Assembly (NCBI RefSeq): GCF_016127575.1
Contig: NZ_CP066019.1
Location: 1,950,001 to 1,982,000, forward strand
DNA from: Cupriavidus necator
GTDB lineage: Bacteria; Pseudomonadota; Gammaproteobacteria; Burkholderiales; Burkholderiaceae
Direction of reading: 5' to 3'
DNA: 32,000 nucleotides
Notes under the pieces: model-generated
What the model was told of the DNA's origin: nothing
What the model saw: only the letters and a program-made list of their open reading frames with translations
The model's database searches: none
Part shown: one piece after another, positions 1 through 16,987 of the stretch
How the letters are laid out: every line of letters starts with the position of its first letter
Position numbering within the stretch: the stretch's first letter is position 1
Program-made: the position numbers and the translations under genes

Positions 1-1219
1 TCAGTGAGCCGCCGATGGCCAGCGCAAGCTGGTGCGCAATCGCCAGGCCCAGGCCGGTGCCGCCGGTCTCCCGGTTGCGCGATGCCTCAAGCCGGACAAA
101 CGGCTGCAGCACGGACTCCAGCTGCTCAGCCGGGATGCCGGGCCCGCGGTCGAGCACGCTGATGGTCACCGCGCCGCCGTCCTCGCGGTGCACGCTCAGC
201 TCCGCCGCCCCGCCGAACTTGAGGGCGTTGTCGGTCAGGTTGGTCAGGATGCGGCGCAAGGCGTGCGGGCGCGTGTCGAGGGTGCCGCCGGCACGCTGCA
301 GGATGGTGACGGCCTTGCCGGTGTCCTGGTAGTCGTAGACCAGGCTCTCGACGAACGAGCCGATGTCGATCCGCGACGGCGTCTCGCCATCGCCATGCAT
401 GGCGCGCGCGTAGGCCAGCCCCTCCTTCACCAGCGTTTCGATCTCGGTGAGGTCTTGCACCAGCTTGCGCTTTTCCTCAGAGTCTTCCGTCATTTCTGCG
501 CGCAGCTTCATCCGCGTGATCGGCGTCTGCAGGTCGTGGGAAATCGCGGCCAGAATCTGCACGCGCTCCTCGACAAAGCGGGCAATGCGTTCGCGCATGG
601 CATTGAATGCGCGCGCGGCGCGCACCAGTTCGGTGGGCCCGGTCTCGCCCAGCGGCTGGGTCCTGGCATTCGGGTCGAGCGCGTCGGCGGCATTGGCCAG
701 CGCCACCAGCGGGCGGATCGCCAGGCGCACGCCAAGCCAGCAGCACAGGATCAGCAGCAGCAACTGGATAAGCAGCACATAAGGCAGCCATTGCGCGACC
801 GGCGTCGGCTTCGGATGCACGTCGATGGTCAGCGGGCTGCCATCGCTGAGGGTCAGGTGGGCCTGCATGCGCTTGCCCTGGCCGGGGATGGACTCGACCC
901 TGACCGGGAAGCGGCCGCCGCTCGCTTCCATGATCCGGTCGGCAACTTCCGTGGCCTGCGCGGACATCTCTGGCACGCCCGGCAGCCCCGGCCCCAGGAT
1001 GTATTGGTAGGCGCCGCGATTCACGTGGCGCAGCCACTGCGGGCGCTCCGCCGCGGGCAGGCGGTCGAGGATGGCGATCGAGGTGGAGACGTCGGTCTCC
1101 AGGGTGCCGAGCATGACCTTGCGCGCGGTAATGTAGCGCTCGGCAAACAGTACGCCGAACGACAGGCCATGGGCGACGATGAGGCCGGCCAGCAGGATCA
1201 GGAACAGCCGCGCGCCCAT
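1..1219 (-). CDS. Sensor histidine kinase, EnvZ-like (3' end cut by window edge)
   Basis: Absent from the ORF track because no stop lies in the window. The reverse frame opens at ATG 1219..1217 (MGARLFLILLAGLIVAHGLSFG...). It contains an H-box AAISHDLQTPITRM, an N-box LTNLTDNALKF, and G-boxes DRGPGIP and GGTGLGLAIA. It runs off the window at nt 2 (...LALAIGGSL). The start lies 29 nt downstream of the response-regulator stop. Confidence 0.85.
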   Translation of the reverse strand, partial: MGARLFLILLAGLIVAHGLSFGVLFAERYITARKVMLGTLETDVSTSIAILDRLPAAERPQWLRHVNRGAYQYILGPGLPGVPEMSAQATEVADRIMEASGGRFPVRVESIPGQGKRMQAHLTLSDGSPLTIDVHPKPTPVAQWLPYVLLIQLLLLILCCWLGVRLAIRPLVALANAADALDPNARTQPLGETGPTELVRAARAFNAMRERIARFVEERVQILAAISHDLQTPITRMKLRAEMTEDSEEKRKLVQDLTEIETLVKEGLAYARAMHGDGETPSRIDIGSFVESLVYDYQDTGKAVTILQRAGGTLDTRPHALRRILTNLTDNALKFGGAAELSVHREDGGAVTISVLDRGPGIPAEQLESVLQPFVRLEASRNRETGGTGLGLAIAHQLALAIGGSL

Positions 1220-1248
1220 CGTACGGGGCCAGGGCAAGGCACGGAGAT

Positions 1249-1992
1249 TCACTGGCGTGCCTCCCGGATCTCCACGGGCGTCGAGAAGACATAGCCCTCG
1301 CTGCGCACGGTCTTGATGTAGCGGGGCTCGCGCGCGTCGTCCCTGAGGTGCTGGCGCAAGCGGCTGACCAGCAGGTCGATCGAGCGCTCGAACATTTCCG
1401 CTTCGCGGCCCTGCGTGAGGCTGAGCAGCTGGTCGCGGTTGAGCACGCGCTGCGGATGGTCGACAAAGACGCGCAGCAGCCGGTATTCCGCGCCGCTCAG
1501 CGCGACGATGACGCCATCCTGGTCAATCAGGTGGCGCGCGGTGGTGTCGAGCTGCCAGTCGCCAAATGCAAGCAGCTGCCCCGCCTCGGTGATCTGCAGG
1601 TTGGGCGGAAGCATCCGGGTCCGCCGCAGCACCGCCTTGATGCGGGCCAGCAGCTCGCGTGCGGCGAAAGGCTTGGCAAGATAGTCGTCGGCGCCCATTT
1701 CCAGGCCGATGATGCGGTCGGTCTCGTCGCTGCGCGCGGTCAGCATCAGCACCGGGGTGGCCTTGTGCTTGCCCGCCCGCAGTTCACGGCACAGCACCAG
1801 GCCATCGTCGCCCGGCATCATCACATCCAGCACGATCAGGTCGACGCTGTTCACGTCCAGGAACGACCGCATGTGCCGCCCGTCAGGCACCACGGTAACG
1901 CGCAAGCCGTTCTTGGTGAGGTAGGTTGAGACCAGTTCACGGATTTCGCGGTCGTCATCCACGATCAGGATGTGGTCGGTGTGTGCTTCCAT
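1249..1992 (-). CDS. OmpR-family (OmpR-like) DNA-binding response regulator
   Basis: Track ORF 1249..2103, trimmed to the internal Met MEAHTDHILIVDDDREIRELV. Receiver domain motifs DD...D...K are present, and a winged-helix C-terminus (RYIKTVRSEGYVF) closely resembles E. coli OmpR. Confidence 0.9.
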   Translation of the reverse strand: MEAHTDHILIVDDDREIRELVSTYLTKNGLRVTVVPDGRHMRSFLDVNSVDLIVLDVMMPGDDGLVLCRELRAGKHKATPVLMLTARSDETDRIIGLEMGADDYLAKPFAARELLARIKAVLRRTRMLPPNLQITEAGQLLAFGDWQLDTTARHLIDQDGVIVALSGAEYRLLRVFVDHPQRVLNRDQLLSLTQGREAEMFERSIDLLVSRLRQHLRDDAREPRYIKTVRSEGYVFSTPVEIREARQ

Positions 1993-2099
1993 CGGCGTCA
2001 CCTTGGCAGATTGATTGAAAACCGCCAGGCGCGGCGCCGGGCACCGAAAGATTAACGCAATACGGCGCGACGGGTATTCCCCCATCGCGCCGTCGGGTA

Positions 2100-2135
2100 A
2101 CACCCGCGGTGCGCCGGCGCGCGCCGCGGGGGTGT
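2100..2135 (-). terminator. GC-rich hairpin just after the SDR stop (possible terminator, no U-tract)
   Basis: ACACCCGCGG (2100-2109) pairs with CCGCGGGGGTGT (2124-2135), 5 nt downstream of stop 2140 on the minus strand. A second 9-bp hairpin ACGGCGCGA/TCGCGCCGT lies at 2062-2093. Confidence 0.35.
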
Positions 2136-2139
2136 CCGC

Positions 2140-2850
2140 TCAATGCCCTGCGCTCTGGCCGCCGTCTACATGCAGGATCTCGCCCGTGACGAACGGCGCG
2201 TTGTCGAGATACAGGACCGCATCGACGATATCGCGCATCTCGCCCATATGCCCCACCGGGTGCAGGGCGCCCAGCGCCTCATGGGTTTCCGGCGCATGCA
2301 TCGGCGACTTGATGATGCCGGGCGCGACCGCGTTGGCGCGGATGCCGGTCCTGGCGTACTCGATGGCAAGCGACTTGGTCGCGGCGTTCAGGCCACCCTT
2401 GGTCAGCGAGGCCAGCACCGACGGCACCCCGCTGATCGCATGGTCGACCAGGCTGGTCGTGATGCTGACCACGTGGCCGCTGCGCTGCTTCTCCATTTCG
2501 GCGATGGCCAGCTGCGTGATATGGAAGAAGCCCGTCAGGTTGATGCCGGTGACGGCCGCGTAGTCCTCGTCGGTATAGCTGGTGAACGGCTTGGCGACGA
2601 AGATGCCGGCGTTGTTGACCAGGGTGTCGATGCGGCCGAACCTTGCCACGGCCTCGGCGACGACGCGGCGCGCCGTGGACGGATCGGCGATATCGCCGGC
2701 GACTGCCAGGATGTCCTGGTCGTCCGACGGCTTGATGGTGCGCGCCGTGGCGACAACGCGATGGCCGCGCTCCCGGAACGCCTTGACCAGTTCGGCGCCA
2801 ATGCCTTGCGATGCGCCCGTGACGACTACGACTTTCTGTGCTGCACTCAT
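2140..2850 (-). CDS. SDR-family oxidoreductase
   Basis: Track ORF 2140..3135, trimmed to MSAAQKVVVVTGASQGIG (TGxxxGxG Rossmann motif). NNAG motif present. The upstream part of the ORF has no homology signal. Confidence 0.9.
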   Translation of the reverse strand: MSAAQKVVVVTGASQGIGAELVKAFRERGHRVVATARTIKPSDDQDILAVAGDIADPSTARRVVAEAVARFGRIDTLVNNAGIFVAKPFTSYTDEDYAAVTGINLTGFFHITQLAIAEMEKQRSGHVVSITTSLVDHAISGVPSVLASLTKGGLNAATKSLAIEYARTGIRANAVAPGIIKSPMHAPETHEALGALHPVGHMGEMRDIVDAVLYLDNAPFVTGEILHVDGGQSAGH

Positions 2851-3139
2851 TTTCTTGAACCTCGATGTAGATTGAATCGGCTTGTTTGCCGATCGGGCCG
2901 GCGGCTCCGATGGGTTCCAATCTAGGCAATTCGCTTCCGTATTCGAAGACCCTGGCGGCACAAACAGTCTTGCGCCACAAGCACAAATGGAGCGGGACGA
3001 ATCCTCCGGCGCGCCTGGCGTGCGCAGCCTCATGGTCACTTCGGCGCAGGCCACGGCCCGGACATCGACTTCTGCCAGTGGCGCACATATGATGGATACA
3101 TCGCTTGATCCGGTGCGGCCTGCGGTCGCAAGCAAAGAA

Positions 3140-4051
3140 ATGAAACGGCAATTCGATGACCTTCAGCTTGGCAGCATCGAGCTGTTCTGCCTGGCCGCGG
3201 AGCTGGGCAGTTTCACCGCGGCGGCAGTGGCCGCGGGCGTGACACCGCCCGCAGTCAGCCGCACTGTGCAAAGGCTGGAAGAGCGCCTGGGGGTGCGGCT
3301 GTTCGTGCGGACCACGCGGCAGATCCGCCTGACCGACGAAGGCCGGGTGTATTTCGAGCAGAGCCGCGGCGCACTGGCGCAGCTGGTGGACGCGGAGCGG
3401 CAGATCAGCGGCCAGCAGGCTGCCCCCGCGGGGCGCTTGCGGATCAGCCTGCCGACCCCTTACGCGCACTATCGCGTGCTGCCGGTGCTGCCGGCATTCC
3501 GCGAGCGCTACCCCGAGGTCGAGATCGACGTGCACATCAGCAACCGCAACGTGGATTTCGCCGATGACACCTATGACCTGTCGGTGCGCGGGCGTGCGCC
3601 GGATGACTCGAACCTGATCGCGCGCAAGCTGGAAGACGCGGAGCTGGTGGTGGTGGCAACGCCTGGCTATCTGCGGCGTGCCGGCACACCGCAGTCATTG
3701 GAGGACCTGCTCAGGCATGAGTGCATCCAGTTCGAGCGCCCGAGCAGCGGCCGGCGGATCCCATGGACGTTCCGGGTCAACGGCGAGGACACGGATATCG
3801 TGACCGCCGGCTCGTATGCGGCGTCAGAAGACATCCTGGGCGGGGCCACGCTGGTGCGCGCCGGCGCGGGCCTGTTCCAGACCTACCGCTTCGTCGTGGA
3901 ACAGGACCTGCGCGACGGCACGCTGGTGGAGGTGCTGAAGGACTACGGCGGCAGTACGCGCCCCTTTGTGCTGCTGTACCCGTCCGCGCGCCACGTCTCG
4001 CGCCGGGTACGGGCGTTCGTCGACTTCCTGGTCGAGAAGTTCTCGGCGTAG
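3140..4051 (+). CDS. LysR-family transcriptional regulator
   Basis: Track ORF 2882..4051. The LysR HTH begins right after Met 3140 (MKRQFDDLQLGSIELFCLAAELGSFTAAAVAAGVTPPAVSRTVQRLEERLG). Divergent from the SDR at 2140-2850. An alternative start at 3089 is possible. Confidence 0.85.
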   Translation: MKRQFDDLQLGSIELFCLAAELGSFTAAAVAAGVTPPAVSRTVQRLEERLGVRLFVRTTRQIRLTDEGRVYFEQSRGALAQLVDAERQISGQQAAPAGRLRISLPTPYAHYRVLPVLPAFRERYPEVEIDVHISNRNVDFADDTYDLSVRGRAPDDSNLIARKLEDAELVVVATPGYLRRAGTPQSLEDLLRHECIQFERPSSGRRIPWTFRVNGEDTDIVTAGSYAASEDILGGATLVRAGAGLFQTYRFVVEQDLRDGTLVEVLKDYGGSTRPFVLLYPSARHVSRRVRAFVDFLVEKFSA

Positions 4052-4066
4052 CGGCTCACGCCGCGC

Positions 4067-4531
4067 TTATTCAGGCCGGATCTGGGCAATGACCACGAGG
4101 ATCACGGCCGCATTCGCCGGCTGCTGGAAGTGCGAGGAAATGGTGCGCGCGTGGCCGGCCTTCTCTGCCAGCACCTCGCCAAACAGGTCCGAGGCACCGT
4201 CGAGCACCGCCGGCTGCCCGAACCAGCCGGGCGCGCTGGAAATGTGCCCGTCGACGCGGACGATGTGGTCTAGGCGCTCGAAGCCACCCAGGTAGGCATG
4301 GATCTGCGCCAGCACGTTGAGCGCCGCCAGCTCGGCGGCACGCTTGCCCTGCCCGACATCCAGGTCCTTGCCGACCTGGCCTTGCCAGACCACCTTGCCA
4401 TCCTGCAAGGGCAACTGCCCGGAAATGAACAGGAGGTCGCCGGCCTGGCTGACCGCGGTATAGCTGCCCAGGGGCTGCGGTGGCTGCGGCAGCACCAGGC
4501 CGCGCGCTGCGAGACGTTCTTGCACAGACAT
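4067..4531 (-). CDS. RidA/YjgF/L-PSP family protein
   Basis: 154-aa ORF. The stretch GSYTAVSQAGDLLFISGQLPL...GKVV...GKDLD is typical of the RidA family. GGAG Shine-Dalgarno upstream of the ATG. Confidence 0.9.
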   Translation of the reverse strand: MSVQERLAARGLVLPQPPQPLGSYTAVSQAGDLLFISGQLPLQDGKVVWQGQVGKDLDVGQGKRAAELAALNVLAQIHAYLGGFERLDHIVRVDGHISSAPGWFGQPAVLDGASDLFGEVLAEKAGHARTISSHFQQPANAAVILVVIAQIRPE

Positions 4532-5800: not shown

Positions 5801-6604
5801 ATGACCACGCACAACCATTCCGGCACCGCCCTCATCACCGGTGCTTCTTCCGGCATCGGCGCCATCTATGCGGAGCGCCTGGCGCGCAGGGGCCACGACC
5901 TGATCCTGGTGGCGCGTAACCGCGCGCGGCTGGAAGCACTGGCCCGCCGGATTACCGACGATACCGGCCGCTCGGTCGAAATCGTGACCGCGGACCTTGG
6001 CCAGGCAGCCGATGTACGACGCATCGAAGAGATCCTGCGCACGGATGCAAGCATCACCACGCTGGTCAACAACGCCGGCTTCGGCGGCGCGGCACCGCTG
6101 CTGCAATCGGATGTCGACACCATGCAGGCAATGATCGAGCTCAACGTCACGGCGCTGACCCGGCTCACCTACGCCGCCGCCCCGGCGTTCGTTGCGCGCG
6201 GCGAGGGCACCATCATCAATATCGCCTCGATCGTGGCGGTCGCGCCCGAGGTCCTGAACGGTGTCTACGGCGCCACCAAGGCGTTTGTGCTGGCCTTTAC
6301 CCAGTCGCTGCAACATGAGCTTGCGGGCAAGGGCGTGCGCATCCAGGCGGTCCTGCCGGGGGCCACCCGCACCGAGTTCTGGGACACCGCCGGCCAGCCG
6401 GTCGAGAACCTGCCGCAATCGATAGTCATGAGCGGCGACGACCTGGTCGACGCGGCCCTGGCAGGGCTGGACCAGGGCGAGGTGATTACCGTGCCGTCGT
6501 TGCCCGACGTGGCCGACTGGAACACGTTCGAGGCGGCACGCGCCGCGCTCGGCCCCAATCTTTCGCGTGACCAGCCCGCTACCCGGTACGGCGTTGCCCG
6601 GTAA
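5801..6604 (+). CDS. SDR-family oxidoreductase
   Basis: MTTHNHSGTALITGASSGIGAIYAERLARRGHDLILVARN, plus NNAG and YGATKAF (YxxxK) motifs. Divergent from the GlxA regulator. Confidence 0.9.
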   Translation: MTTHNHSGTALITGASSGIGAIYAERLARRGHDLILVARNRARLEALARRITDDTGRSVEIVTADLGQAADVRRIEEILRTDASITTLVNNAGFGGAAPLLQSDVDTMQAMIELNVTALTRLTYAAAPAFVARGEGTIINIASIVAVAPEVLNGVYGATKAFVLAFTQSLQHELAGKGVRIQAVLPGATRTEFWDTAGQPVENLPQSIVMSGDDLVDAALAGLDQGEVITVPSLPDVADWNTFEAARAALGPNLSRDQPATRYGVAR

Positions 6605-6732
6605 CTGACGGCTCGCGGACGCGCGCGGCCTTTACACCACCTTCCCCGGGGCGCGCGGTATCCGGCAAGCGCTCCGGCCGCCGCGCGCCTCCTCCCTGCC
6701 GCCTACGCCAGCAGGCGCCTCCCATGGTCCTT

Positions 6733-6846
6733 TTGTATCGCTATGTATCAAGCACAGGGGACGATACGTGCCCTGACAGAAACAGGGTCTCCACGCTATA
6801 GCGCAGATACACCGGTTTCCTTTAATGCATCTCGTGGACCGACGGC
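6733..6846 (+). promoter_or_regulatory. Conserved non-coding block upstream of small repeat-protein gene (copy 1)
   Basis: Homologous to 14886-14999 (about 74 of 114 positions identical in my manual alignment). Shared blocks: TGTATC direct repeats (6734-6739, 6744-6749), ACGATACGTG (6761-6770), CAGATACA (6804-6811), AATGCAT (6824-6830), and CGTGG.CCG.CGGC. Confidence 0.45.
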
Positions 6847-6910
6847 ATGCGTCGACAAGACGATCCCCCGGCCGCGCAGTTCAACCCAGACCTCAAGGAA
6901 ACCGACCAAG

Positions 6911-7219
6911 ATTACCGATCTCACCAAGCGCATTGTTCTCGCCCTCGCCCTGGCAGCTGCCGCCGCCGGCGCCCAGGCCGCCGGTCCCGGTGCGCGCGAT
7001 CCGTTCAGCGAAGGCGCACGTTCCGTGCAGGACGCACGCAACGCATTCACCGACGGCGCCCGCGCCGTGCAGGACGCACGCGACCCGTACACCGAGGGCG
7101 CGCGCAATGTCGACCCGTACGACAAGGGTGCACGCATCCTGGCCGGCTGGGACCGCACGGGTCCGTCCGCTGATCCGGCGCGCAGCTTCGATCCCTACCA
7201 GGACGGCGCCCACGCCTGA
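6911..7219 (+). CDS. Small secreted tandem-repeat protein, DP[FY]x[DE]GAR repeats (copy 1; start codon uncertain, possibly ATT)
   Basis: Track ORF 6743..7219. Signal peptide KRIVLALALAAAAAGAQA|AGPG, then the repeats ARDPFSEGARSVQD / ARNAFTDGARAVQD / ARDPYTEGARNV / DPYDKGAR ... DPYQDGAHA. Paralogous to 15063-15374. AAGGAA Shine-Dalgarno at 6895-6900, but no ATG/GTG/TTG before the signal peptide. ATT at 6911 is the only start-like codon. Confidence 0.6.
   Translation: MTDLTKRIVLALALAAAAAGAQAAGPGARDPFSEGARSVQDARNAFTDGARAVQDARDPYTEGARNVDPYDKGARILAGWDRTGPSADPARSFDPYQDGAHA
6992..7135 (+). repeat. In-frame tandem repeats (42/42/36/24 nt) encoding the DP[FY]x[DE]GAR units
   Basis: Direct reading: three to four successive units with the GGCGC(A/G/C)CG core (GAR), preceded by GA(T/C)CC(G)T(T/A)C (DPF/DPY). 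Confidence 0.7.
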
Positions 7220-13712: not shown

Positions 13713-14648
13713 TCAGTCGATCGGCGGCTTCGGGAAGGTCTGCTCGCCGGGCTCGAGCGTGAAATCGAACGCCAGTGTGTAGAACGGCGCCGGCACATCG
13801 CCCCACGGGCTGGGGCCTTGATGGTGCAGCCGGAGATCGCCAACCAGCTGCCGATGCACGCCGAACGTGACATCGGATTCCAGCTTGTCCGGCGCGTCGG
13901 CAAACACCTGGGTGACGAGCGTCCGGTAACCCGGCGCCGCGACGATGAAATGGATATGCGCCGGCCGGTACGGATGGCGTTGCTGCTCGGCCAGTAGCGT
14001 GCCTACCGGGCCGTGGGTCGGCACGGGATAGCCGGCAGGCCGTACCGTGCGAAAGTGGTAGCCGCCGCTTTCATCGGTATGGAAGCAGCCGCGCAGGTTG
14101 CGGTCGGGCTGGGCCGGATCCTGGTTGTCATACAGTCCCACCGGCGACGCCTGCCAGATCTCGACCAGCGCGCCTGGCAGCGGCGTGCCATCGGTCGCCC
14201 GCACGGTGCCGCTGACCAGCAGCGGCAAGCCAGGCGCGTCGTCCTGCACCACGCAGTCACCGCAGTCATAGCGCGGCGCGTTGGCGCGATAGAACGGGCC
14301 CAGCAGCGCGCCGGGCGTGCGCCCGTCCCTGGTGCTGTTATTCATGACGGTCACCAGCGTCGACAGCCCCAGCACGTCGGCAGCCAGCACAACCTCGTTG
14401 TGTTTGGCATTGGTCGCATGGCCCAGGCTGGCGATATACCCCAGGGCAAGCTCGAATTCCTCGTCGGACAGCCGCACCTCGGACAGGAACCCGTGAAGGT
14501 GCCGCACCAGGGAATCCATGATGAAGCGCAGGCGGGGATTGGCGGTATTGGCCATGGCCGCCTGGACCACGCCTGTCACCGAGTGTTCGTCCTCGATCAG
14601 CGCCAGACGCTCGCCTTGTGGCGCCTGCCGCTCGCTGGAAGTTTCCAT
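13713..14648 (-). CDS. Intradiol ring-cleavage dioxygenase (hydroxyquinol/catechol 1,2-dioxygenase family)
   Basis: Track ORF 13713..14666, trimmed to METSSERQ (AAGGAGG SD 6 nt upstream). N-terminal helical domain (NPRLRFIMDSLVRHLHGFLSEVRLSDEEF). C-terminal domain carries LLGPFY, GLYDNQ, RPAHIHF (Tyr/His iron ligands). Confidence 0.9.
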   Translation of the reverse strand: METSSERQAPQGERLALIEDEHSVTGVVQAAMANTANPRLRFIMDSLVRHLHGFLSEVRLSDEEFELALGYIASLGHATNAKHNEVVLAADVLGLSTLVTVMNNSTRDGRTPGALLGPFYRANAPRYDCGDCVVQDDAPGLPLLVSGTVRATDGTPLPGALVEIWQASPVGLYDNQDPAQPDRNLRGCFHTDESGGYHFRTVRPAGYPVPTHGPVGTLLAEQQRHPYRPAHIHFIVAAPGYRTLVTQVFADAPDKLESDVTFGVHRQLVGDLRLHHQGPSPWGDVPAPFYTLAFDFTLEPGEQTFPKPPID

Positions 14649-14661
14649 GTTTTGCCTCCTT

Positions 14662-14702
14662 TGCAAACGTTTGCATTATCGGCGGTTTCGACGGATGGTC
14701 AA
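14662..14702 (-). promoter_or_regulatory. Sigma70-like promoter (-35 TTGACC, 16 nt, -10 GATAAT) overlapped by perfect LacI-type operator TGCAAACGTTTGCA
   Basis: On the minus strand: TTGACC (14702-14697), 16-nt spacer, GATAAT (14680-14675). The last T of the -10 is the first base of the 14-bp perfect palindrome at 14675-14662. AAGGAGG and ATG 14648 follow immediately. Confidence 0.6.
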
Positions 14703-14885
14703 GGTCGAAGTTGGTCACCGCCACGACTAGCAACGGCTGCCGTTCAACCAGAATCACAATCAAAACAAGGGCGTACGGAGGATTTTCGGGAGAAACCCTA
14801 GGTGCATGCAGAGGCGCAGAATGTGGCGCATAAGCCTGTCCGAGTCCCCTGCCGATGCGGCTCCCCAGCCCGTTCGCGCATGAAT

Positions 14886-14999
14886 TTGTACCCGTCTGTA
14901 TCACGCAGCTGCAACGATACGTGTTTCGACAGAGACACCCCTCACGCGCTACGGGCCAGATACATCGATCGCCTTAAATGCATTCCGTGGCCCGGCGGC
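14886..14999 (+). promoter_or_regulatory. Conserved non-coding block upstream of small repeat-protein gene (copy 2)
   Basis: Partner of 6733-6846. Shared blocks: TGTACC/TGTATC (14887-14892, 14897-14902), ACGATACGTG (14914-14923), CAGATACA (14957-14964), AATGCAT (14977-14983). Confidence 0.45.
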
Positions 15000-15062
15000 G
15001 ATCCTCAACAAAGCCAGTCCCTGCCGCGCAATACCGAACCCAAACCTTTAAGGAAGACGATC

Positions 15063-15374
15063 ATGACTACCCACAACATCGCCAAGCGCTTTGTCTTCGC
15101 CATCGCCCTGGTTGCCGCCGCTGCCGGTGCGCAGGCCGCCGCACTGTCCCAGCCGGGCGCGCGAGACCCTTTCACCGACGGTGCCCGCTCCGTGCAAGAG
15201 GCACGCAGCCCGTACAGCGACGGCGCGCGTGCCGTCGACCCGTTCACGGACGGTGCGCGCAACGTCGATCCGTACTACGACGGCGCACGCACCCTGTCCG
15301 GCCTGGACCGCACCGGCGTTTCAGCGGACCCGGCGCGCAGTGTCGACCCCTATCTTGACGGCGCCTACGCCTGA
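15063..15374 (+). CDS. Small secreted tandem-repeat protein, DP[FY]x[DE]GAR repeats (copy 2)
   Basis: Track ORF 14802..15374, trimmed to the ATG at 15063 with an AAGGAAG SD 6 nt upstream. Signal peptide MTTHNIAKRFVFAIALVAAAAGAQA|AALSQPG. Repeats ARDPFTDGARSVQE / ARSPYSDGARAV / DPFTDGARNV / DPYYDGAR ... DPYLDGAYA. Confidence 0.8.
   Translation: MTTHNIAKRFVFAIALVAAAAGAQAAALSQPGARDPFTDGARSVQEARSPYSDGARAVDPFTDGARNVDPYYDGARTLSGLDRTGVSADPARSVDPYLDGAYA
15159..15290 (+). repeat. In-frame tandem repeats encoding the DP[FY]xDGAR units (copy 2)
   Basis: Four successive units of 42, 36, 30 and 24 nt, read directly from the sequence. Confidence 0.7.
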
Positions 15375-16480: not shown

Positions 16481-16696
16481 TCAGACCACGTTGATCGTGA
16501 CGTCGATGTTGCCCCGCGTGGCCTTGGAATACGGACAGGTCTGATGCGCCTCGTGCGCCAGGGCCTCCGCGGTCTCGCGCTCCACGCCTGGGACGTGCAC
16601 GTTGAGGCGCGCCTGCAGGCAATACGCATCGCCCGCCATGCCGAGGTCGACTTCGGCGTCGATGGCCACGTTCTCTGGCAGTGCAATCTTTATCTT
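16481..16696 (-). pseudogene. Ohr paralogue remnant (C-terminal ~70 codons only)
   Basis: KIKIALPENVAIDAEVDLGMAGDAYCLQARLNVHVPGVERETAEALAHEAHQTCPYSKATRGNIDVTINVV aligns with residues ~69-139 of the intact Ohr at 15408-15827. The N-terminal half, including the first catalytic Cys, is missing. Confidence 0.8.
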
Positions 16697-16987
16697 CCTG
16701 GCTGCCAGGATGCGCGCCGTTTCAACGCGCAGCTGCTCGACTGCACGTGCGGGTGATTGACCGGTGTTCAGCCGGAACTCGCGGCCGAAGTGGCGTGGGC
16801 TCATATGCACGGAATCTGCGAGCCTTTCAACCGAGAGGTCTTCGTGCAGGTGGGTTCGCCGAAGATTCGCAGGAATGCCCGCCGCATGCGTTCGGGTCGG
16901 TGAAGCCCGTCAGGCTGGCGATGCGCTCGACGGTGAGTCGATCTGCGTCTATCAGGGTTTCTTCGCCCCTGCGTGGAACACGACGTT
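16697..16987 (-). pseudogene. AraC/GlxA-family HTH fragments (frameshifted, permuted order)
   Basis: Three reverse frames give RRGEETLIDADRLTVERIASLTGFTDP / ERMRRAFLRIFGEP (HTH-2-like), followed by HLHEDLSVERLADSVHMSPRHFGREFRLNTGQSPARAVEQLRVETARILAA (HTH-1-like). The latter is fused in frame to the Ohr fragment (track ORF 16481..16810). Confidence 0.7.

Follow-up and report, generated by a model that had tools for sequence, protein, structure and literature searches.

The 32,000-nt stretch of Cupriavidus necator DNA analysed here (contig NZ_CP066019.1, positions 1,950,001 to 1,982,000; hereafter the window) contains two genes for small CopQ-like repeat proteins, each of which is preceded by a copy of the same conserved block of approximately 115 bp, referred to below as the module. 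A preliminary description, made from the sequence alone, had taken this block for a shared cis-regulatory element and its 10-bp-phased TGTATC repeats for a response-regulator type binding site, with a structured 5′ leader named as a further possibility. The former view is backed by gapless conservation of the blocks in related loci, by OmpR-like hexamers and phasing, and by co-localisation with a response regulator (RR) gene. The module is thus likely to be a promoter/operator cassette, portable between genes, that functions at the DNA level and is bound by the RR of an OmpR/EnvZ-like two-component system. The principal features of the locus are as follows.

1..1258, minus strand: EnvZ-like histidine kinase (HK), partner of the RR, cut by the window start
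1249..1992, minus strand: OmpR-like RR, the candidate trans-acting factor
6732..6846, plus strand: module copy 1 (columns 7-121 of alignment A3, in which column n is position 6725+n), with operator array, -10-like element and predicted transcript start
6895..6900, plus strand: copy 1 Shine-Dalgarno sequence AAGGAA, in the conserved context AAGGAAAnCGAyCATG
6911..7219, plus strand: CopQ-like gene 1, with signal peptide and DPY/F-x-DGAR repeats; ATT is its start candidate
14885..14999, plus strand: module copy 2 (column n is position 14878+n)
15063..15374, plus strand: CopQ-like gene 2, ATG start, 103 aa
15408..15827, plus strand: ohr (organic hydroperoxide resistance; TIGR03561, 150 bits), 33 nt downstream of gene 2 and its probable operon partner

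Aligned without gaps, positions 6733-6846 and 14886-14999 are identical at 78 of 114 sites, slightly above the approximately 74 counted previously. The same 114-nt block compared at all other offsets, on both strands, yields a mean of 29.0 identities (SD 4.7), with 50 for the next best. The 5′ edge of the homology is abrupt at ~6732/14885, with similarity further upstream being at chance level, whilst 3′ of ~6846/14999 a weak stretch is followed by the conserved Shine-Dalgarno context, much as had been described. All of the blocks named beforehand are present: TGTATC at 6734 and 6744 in copy 1, with TGTACC/TGTATC at 14887/14897 in copy 2; ACGATACGTG at 6761-6770 and CAGATACA at 6804-6811, both in copy 1; TTTAAT/TTAAAT followed by GCAT at 6821-6829 and 14974-14982; and CGTGG.CCG.CGGC at 6833-6846. 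Within the 32-kb window the pattern TGTAY-N5-TGTAT occurs at the two modules only, against an expectation of 0.00. The start-codon position is 182 nt from module column 1 in copy 1 and 184 nt from it in copy 2; the net 2-nt indel is therefore correct, and the copies stand in different frames relative to their genes. The two coding regions specify proteins that are identical at 70 of 98 residues (76.5 % at the DNA level) and match at 57 of 98 third codon positions (58 %, where chance gives 40 %), so that the marked synonymous divergence noted earlier holds. With 68 % identity (chance 25 %), the upstream block is thus better kept than the synonymous sites of the genes that follow it.

With regard to conservation beyond the window, a protein-based scan using one genome per species provided 42 Cupriavidus/Ralstonia loci with a CopQ-like gene (numbered with the prefix L), which were searched with a profile built from the two window copies alone. 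Matches were found at 27 places in 25 of the 42 loci (E-values of 2e-53 to 3e-8), nearly all of them directly upstream of a CopQ-like gene and on the same strand. Absence of the blocks from homologues had been named as grounds for rejecting a shared element; in these relatives the blocks are present. The resulting alignment of 27 sequences spans 125 columns with zero gaps, and its 21 invariant columns are concentrated in the hexamers and in the -10-like element, giving the consensus TTTGTA..c.T.TGTATCa.GC...CGATACgtg.cC.gACA.Aa...cGCTAC.gGcg.GATACatCggtC.cCTTaAAT.C.TtCCgtGGcc...gCG. On the 3′ side this is followed by a variable 50-70 nt and then by a conserved AAGGAAAnCGATCATG. When searched with the 27-sequence profile, nhmmer returned E=2.4e-27 for copy 1 and E=8e-32 for copy 2, the latter being near-identical in Cupriavidus sp. 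UYPR2.512 (L001).

The module is not restricted to CopQ-like genes, as other gene types are also preceded by it. A second copy lies directly before ohr in L011, whilst in L018 a second, divergent copy lies ~45 nt before a gene for a ~600-aa DsbD_TM-redoxin-Thioredoxin_10 fusion (termed DipZ-like below). A Ralstonia contig (L049) has full modules before a copQ-like gene followed by a hydrolase gene, and before ohr followed by a redoxin gene; and in L030/L031 the module stands on a mer/metal island before an open reading frame (ORF) with a signal peptide. Several of these places bear further description. In Cupriavidus lacunae two full modules lie back to back, ~420 bp apart (L018, 2255-2927), one before the dipZ-like gene and the other before the CopQ-like gene, and this species has at least six copies (L007, L008, L010, L017 and two in L018). 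L030 and L031 are identical over 1-3800, despite being assigned in one case to a Ralstonia sp. and in the other to a plasmid contig of Cupriavidus, and have the order merP-merT-merR, module, 122-aa signal-peptide ORF, CopQ-like gene and 133-aa ORF without a Pfam match; here the module is apparently carried by a mobile metal-resistance island. A BLAST of the module against PLSDB plasmids gave matches to other Cupriavidus/Ralstonia chromids only, and to no C. metallidurans CH34 replicon.

In the alignment, the conserved bases resolve into six hexamers resembling GATACA, which are arranged in pairs with an internal spacing of 10-11 bp. These were delimited by eye from conservation as sites S1-S6, which are given below by alignment column, followed by their positions, and those of the -10-like elements, in the two copies.

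Columns 9-14: S1, TGTAYS, GATACA-type on the bottom strand
Columns 19-24: S2, TGTATC, bottom strand, 10 bp from S1
Columns 38-43: S3, GATACG, top strand
Columns 50-55: S4, GACAGA, top strand, 10 bp from S3
Columns 70-74: S5, GCTAC, top strand
Columns 81-86: S6, GATACA, top strand, 11 bp from S5
6734..6749, minus strand: copy 1 S1 and S2, TGTATC-N4-TGTATC, that is GATACA on the minus strand with a 10-bp period, facing away from the gene
6763..6780, plus strand: copy 1 S3 (GATACG, 6763-6768) and S4 (GACAGA, 6775-6780), 10-bp period
6795..6811, plus strand: copy 1 S5 (GCTAT, 6795-6799) and S6 (GATACA, 6806-6811), 11-bp period, at predicted positions of ~-35 and ~-25
6821..6826, plus strand: copy 1 -10-like element TTTAAT, predicted start ~6833-6834
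14887..14902, minus strand: copy 2 S1 and S2, TGTACC-N4-TGTATC
14916..14933, plus strand: copy 2 S3 (GATACG, 14916-14921) and S4 (GACAGA, 14928-14933)
14948..14964, plus strand: copy 2 S5 (GCTAC, 14948-14952) and S6 (GATACA, 14959-14964)
14974..14979, plus strand: copy 2 -10-like element TTAAAT, putative start ~14986-14987

Across the 27 sequences, TGTA of S1 (columns 9-12) and GTAT of S2 (columns 20-23) are invariant, with T19 nearly so, as are A41, A51 and C52 within S3/S4, and T72, A73, G81, A82, A84 and C85 within S5/S6. In the -10-like element (columns 96-101), A99, A100 and T101 are invariant, with T96 and T97 being nearly so. Two of the hexamers (S1 and S2) face away from the gene and four (S3-S6) towards it, with S1/S2 mirroring S3/S4 about column 31 to form a dyad; due to this symmetry, columns 4-60 of the profile also align to its reverse strand.

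From the end of S6 to the hexamer TT(A/T)AAT is 9 bp, which would place S5 at the -35 position. The -10 consensus of C. metallidurans is TAnAAT (PMC7563307), and the module hexamer fits four of its five specified positions. Given a -10 role for this hexamer, transcription would begin near column 108-109 (~6833 and ~14986), with S5 at -35, S6 at -25 and a 5′ untranslated region (UTR) of ~77 nt, such that only the last block of the module (CGTGG.CCG.CGGC) would be transcribed. As the hexamer lies at 6821-6826, about 100 of the 114 nt are upstream of the predicted start, and the word leader, under which the block was originally presented, is probably a misnomer. By eye, sigma-54 (GG-N10-GC) and sigma-32 readings of the CCTTAAAT region were rejected on account of unfit spacing or downstream -10 conservation, and a LysR-type regulator reading of ATAC-N7-GTAT was likewise set aside, as the motif is not present. 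A simple terminator scan returned no site at either module.

At the level of the alignment, the predicted UTR has no consensus structure or covariation, and the minimum free energy (MFE) z-scores of single sequences are ~0 (mean -0.07). Its first five nucleotides after the predicted start (GUGGCC...) nonetheless close a ~40-nt hairpin in 17 of 18 homologous UTRs, compared with 9.1 +/- 2.0 (maximum 14) amongst shuffled UTRs in which the first six bases were kept. In the window these predicted structures are as follows.

6834..6875, plus strand: copy 1 predicted 5′-terminal mRNA hairpin (GUGGACCG...CGGCCGC), MFE fold, which includes the last block of the preliminary description
14987..15027, plus strand: copy 2 predicted 5′-terminal hairpin (GUGGC...GCCGC)

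Tentatively, therefore, the CGTGG.CCG.CGGC block may represent the transcript start together with the 5′ arm of a terminal hairpin, and this GC-rich hairpin may serve as an mRNA-stabilising stem-loop. A semi-conserved GCGCAAT(A/C)CC motif follows the 5′ hairpin in many copies.

A candidate for the protein that binds the array emerges from clustering of the genes around the 42 loci. An OmpR-family RR gene lies beside the module in four of them (L009, L013, L015 and L034), in the order RR-HK, module, copQ-like, ohr and redoxin. The RR of the window is 88-89 % identical to those of L009, L013 and L015, and 78.5 % identical to that of L034, as well as being 100 % identical to one of Cupriavidus sp. 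GA3-3; the window HK shows 53 % identity to the L034 HK over 419 aa by blastx. The best NCBIfam model for the RR is OmpR, at 256 bits (equivalog cutoff 331), and that for the L034 HK is EnvZ, at 177 bits (cutoff 415), so that the pair is by this criterion an OmpR/EnvZ-like paralogue and not OmpR proper. With E. coli OmpR the RR shares 46 % identity and a similar recognition helix. Searching the PDB by its sequence yielded generic OmpR/PhoB-family structures only.

The RR genes also carry module-type arrays in their own upstream regions. In L009 (239-286), TTGTATGGCTTTGTGG...AGATACATTGCGATACA lies between a divergent dipZ-like gene and the RR gene, whilst in L034 a degenerate module faces a divergent CcdA/DsbD-like gene, and in L049 the RR-HK pair is divergent from dsbD_TM. 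RR orthologues of 84-88 % identity are present in Rhizobium, Bradyrhizobium, Agrobacterium and Bosea, where they are flanked by DipZ-like, OsmC/Ohr, MsrA, alpha/beta-hydrolase and GST genes. The intergenic arrays of these alpha-proteobacteria read TTGTAC-N4-TGTAC ... GTTACA ... GACACAT-N4-GATAC, followed by CCTTATGCGG; GACACAT-N4-GATAC is the pattern of the proximal pair S5/S6, which thus recurs there. The Cupriavidus profile matches the alpha-proteobacterial arrays with E-values of 0.002-0.014, and of 2e-6 upstream of the Bosea RR. An RR identity of 84-88 % between beta- and alpha-proteobacteria is unusually high for a two-component regulator, and suggests that the cluster as a whole has spread horizontally or that constraint is very strong. 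No described two-component system linked to dipZ/ohr was encountered in the literature searched.

A collection of metagenomes was additionally scanned using DNA alone, with the pattern TTTGTA-N6-TGTATC-N14-ATAC, which covers S1-S3 only. This returned 120 loci, 45 of which (with a GC content of 0.53-0.69) have a module-profile match at E<1e-3. Genes of the reference set follow, within 1.5 kb and on the same strand, in 28 of 46 usable matches: 19 are DipZ/DsbD_TM or redoxin, three CopQ-like, two Ohr, three hydrolase and one RR-HK. Amongst the 45 module-match loci (317 kb), 21 encode an RR orthologue (>=65 % identity), in most cases divergently and at a distance of 70-150 nt, as opposed to just six of the 75 loci with the pattern only (534 kb). 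From this gene set and RR enrichment, it follows that the DNA motif predicts both regulator and regulon.

Operators of the OmpR/PhoB family are characterised by two or more half-sites of 6-7 bp with a period of 10-11 bp, and by a cognate RR gene that co-occurs with them and often has autoregulatory sites of its own; the module displays both traits. In the mechanism that we propose, the EnvZ-like kinase would phosphorylate the OmpR-like RR, which would then bind the phased GATACA-type sites in tandem and activate, rather than repress, an otherwise weak promoter. S5/S6 would replace the -35 element, whilst S3/S4 and the inverted S1/S2 would add cooperative upstream binding or, alternatively, could be a relic of a bidirectional arrangement between dipZ and the RR gene. 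Transcription from ~6833 or ~14986 would produce a 5′ UTR of about 77 nt that has the GC-rich hairpin first and the strong, conserved Shine-Dalgarno sequence last.

Several observations weigh against this reading, or against parts of it. In the window, the RR gene is adjacent to neither module, the distances being 4.7 kb and 12.9 kb, and in Cupriavidus taiwanensis (L048) the RR is likewise unlinked from its targets. With respect to the promoter, the -10-like hexamer has T, not A, at its second position, and a simple sigma-70 scan found no plus-strand site at either module, with one minus-strand match near 14675-14702; a missing match is expected for an activator-dependent promoter, yet proves nothing. 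The table of transcription start sites for C. metallidurans CH34 (PMC9045368), a strain for which carriage of the module is not established, contains no start with the -10 strings of the module, and a string search of that supplement for the -10 and S6 sequences returned no module-type promoter, only a single unrelated CTTAAATGCG on pMOL28. In addition, 18 of the 46 metagenome matches have none of the reference genes downstream, and one protein could bind at the distal dyad (S1-S4) and another at the proximal pair (S5-S6).

Amongst the other explanations for the module, an operator array for a different factor, with the OmpR-like system as a mere frequent neighbour, is the one to be taken most seriously, although we consider it unlikely. 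Such a factor might be an OhrR/MarR repressor, a LysR-type regulator or a metal RR of CopR/AgrR type: control of ohr genes by OhrR is classical, L014, L016, L023 and L026 each have a MarR-family gene close to the CopQ-like one, and at 10 loci a LysR gene is nearby. However, L016, L023 and L026 are without the module, the ohrR-ohr pair of L014 is upstream of the module and separate from it, and the LysR neighbours are inconsistently placed, with none in the alpha-proteobacterial or L009/L034-type clusters; both kinds of neighbour were rejected as the regulator due to this inconsistent linkage. CopQ-family genes of C. metallidurans are known targets of AgrR/CopR-type regulators, and prsQ2 has an AgrR box (PMC7380067), but this box, ATKACANNNNTGTMAT, finds no match at <=2 mismatches in either module. 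Across taxa, the OmpR-like RR is the sole regulator that recurs beside the arrays. It is far less probable that one TGTATC is the -35 element of a promoter for an alternative sigma factor of the extracytoplasmic function (ECF) type (e.g. TGTATC-N17-CGTG, columns 19-45), with the remainder being a long leader. TGTATC does resemble some ECF -35 elements, such as TGTAAC of Bacillus subtilis sigma-X, and the 17-nt spacing to a conserved CGTG fits; this would, however, leave unexplained the six phased copies in two orientations, the dyad and the conserved -10-like TTAAAT. Conservation of the CGTG itself (columns 42-45) is no more than moderate, with 1.4 bits for C42 and 0.5-1.0 bit for columns 43-45, and no ECF sigma gene is recurrent in the neighbourhoods.

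Very little probability is likewise given to a structured 5′ leader RNA (a riboswitch, attenuator or platform for binding small RNAs) whose promoter would lie beyond the block on its 5′ side. In its favour, TGTATC can pair with GATACG and TTGT with ACAA, a hairpin does seem to form at the 3′ edge, and RNAalifold, applied to the forward strand of the 27-sequence alignment, draws two short, nested stems (8-11/51-54 and 19-24/38-43). These stems are, however, built from the nearly invariant hexamers, their consensus energy is -4.83 kcal/mol with a covariation term of -0.29, a double change is seen in one of 10 pairs, and they are broken without compensation in L005, L006 and L007. Rfam 15 returned no match at the gathering threshold for the whole window, and none at E<=1 for 6600-6960; no conserved sequence fit to be a promoter is present upstream of column 7 in the 27-sequence alignment; and the same array is found in both orientations within divergent intergenic regions. 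On the basis of these weak and unsupported stems, the lack of a family match or upstream promoter, and the two orientations, the block is read as a set of DNA-level sites, and the leader alternative of the preliminary description is not supported. Slimmer still are the prospects for a neutral leftover of recent gene duplication or an N-terminal coding extension. Long in-frame extensions are indeed open upstream of both genes (ORFs 6743-7219 and 14802-15374), but the two copies lie in different frames, UTR lengths differ by non-multiples of 3 and the conservation has no 3-nt periodicity. As to duplication, the identity of the module exceeds that of the synonymous sites whilst its flanks are at chance level, and the blocks persist in other genera and upstream of unrelated genes.

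Returning to the OmpR/EnvZ-like system, the regulon across proteobacteria would comprise dipZ-like reductant transporter/thioredoxin fusions, TlpA-like redoxins, Ohr, MsrA, alpha/beta-hydrolases, GST and the RR-HK pair itself. This gene set suggests that the system responds to envelope damage of an oxidative or thiol kind, with such damage as the putative signal. In Cupriavidus/Ralstonia the cassette is also placed before several genes for CopQ-like small periplasmic proteins. A bolder proposal, to which we attach somewhat less than even confidence, is that the module marks a previously undescribed and widespread regulon for envelope oxidative/thiol damage under an unusually conserved OmpR/EnvZ-like system, into which CopQ-like proteins have been recruited in Cupriavidus/Ralstonia. 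Such a regulon would have an unusual operator of six sites in two orientations, with dipZ, TlpA-like redoxin, ohr, msrA and hydrolase as core targets. Were recruitment true, this CopQ-like subgroup would act in periplasmic redox/oxidative-damage defence and not in metal binding as such. Whilst operator-promoters of the OmpR/PhoB family are well known as a kind, this element appears, together with its regulator and regulon, to have no description in the literature searched.

The CopQ/CzcJ/MmmQ family of C. metallidurans has 19-21 strongly metal-induced paralogues and is confined to Cupriavidus/Ralstonia (PMC2864759; PMC7563307). It is poorly understood in function and regulation, despite including some of the most strongly metal-induced genes of that organism, and the genome paper left its upstream regulatory sequences as open work (PMC2864759). 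With the module, one CopQ subgroup gains a defined cis-element, a candidate regulator and a coherent co-regulated gene set, and an apparently uncharacterised two-component regulon extends well past Cupriavidus; the compact 115-bp cassette could also become a stress-responsive promoter part.

The two CopQ-like proteins of the window, each ~100 aa long, have DP(Y/F)-x-(D/E)GAR repeats in addition to a signal peptide, and neither has a Pfam or NCBIfam match. They share the hallmarks of the CopQ family (PMC2864759), namely small size, a signal peptide, three to four RDxxTDG-type repeats and restriction to Cupriavidus/Ralstonia; almost all homologues of the pair are from Cupriavidus and its relatives, and one window protein is 98 % identical to that of strain UYPR2.512. 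These homologues are named either CopQ or hydroxyquinol 1,2-dioxygenase. The real dioxygenase is a neighbour on the minus strand (13713-14666; Dioxygenase_C/N), and the label on the CopQ-like proteins looks like a propagated annotation error. In gene 1, the position of the family ATG is occupied by AAG (6908-6910), where both the paralogue and the orthologue in L010 have ATG. The sole nearby in-frame start is a rare ATT at 6911, with the next in-frame ATG (6743) being inside the module, and gene 1 may be a recent pseudogene or may be ATT-started.

Thirteen of the 42 loci have, in addition to the CopQ-like gene, an Ohr homologue in their 6 kb, which in those inspected lies directly downstream of that gene. 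In the window, a 109-aa ORF on the minus strand (16481-16810) consists of an AraC-type HTH_18 fragment and the C-terminal half of an Ohr/OsmC protein; the Ohr part is 64 % identical to residues 65-139 of the window Ohr, and the ORF is probably the remnant of a second ohr copy. An SDR gene (2151-2852, minus strand) and a YjgF-family gene (4067-4531, minus strand) of the window recur near module loci elsewhere, with both being found in L005, L006, L008 and L011, and the SDR gene also in L001 and L010. These may reflect a conserved neighbourhood rather than the regulon.

Amongst known systems, DsbRS, and HprSR with msrPQ in E. coli, are two-component systems that lie beside dsbD/dipZ-type or methionine-sulfoxide-repair genes and activate them under copper or oxidant stress. 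With the window system they share the encoding of a two-component system beside periplasmic redox-repair genes, but they differ in having CopR/CusR-like regulators and other boxes, and no orthology to the window system is indicated (DsbRS of Pseudomonas aeruginosa is mentioned in PMC11195947). The AgrR box and CopR motifs of C. metallidurans are closer in host and targets, being from the same genus, with CopQ/PrsQ genes as targets and RRs of the OmpR/PhoB family; the AgrR operator at prsQ2 also mixes inverted with in-phase direct half-sites (PMC7380067). The AgrR box, ATKACA-N4-TGTMAT, is however an inverted repeat that is absent from both modules at the mismatch limit given above, and AgrR belongs to the CopR/CusR heavy-metal subgroup, on whose model the window RR scores 143 bits, as opposed to 256 on OmpR.

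The pho box of PhoB exemplifies class II activation, in that an 11-bp direct-repeat pair ends ~10 bp upstream of the -10 element and replaces the -35. S5/S6 of the module share the 11-bp pair, the gap of nearly 10 bp to the -10-like element and the lack of a recognisable -35, but the pho half-site is CTGTCAT as opposed to GATACA, the module repeats face the opposite way relative to the gene and distal sites are present in addition. Upstream of the ompF and ompC promoters of E. coli, several tandem OmpR sites extend over ~100 bp, as do the sites of the module. The OmpR-EnvZ system differs from that of the window in its regulator (the window RR scores 256 bits against the OmpR cutoff of 331, and is 46 % identical to the E. 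coli protein), in its targets, which are porins and not redox/repair and CopQ-like genes, and in its operators, as two of the six module sites are inverted to form the dyad, and the proximal pair overlaps the predicted -35 position rather than lying upstream of it. The ChIP-exo motif of E. coli OmpR is KWWGTTACAT / GTTACATTTTGTTACAT, repeated every 10 bp (PMC5438342); the module half-site GATACAT is one position removed from GTTACAT, the 10-11 bp period is alike, and OmpR and EnvZ are the best family matches for the regulator and kinase that accompany the module.

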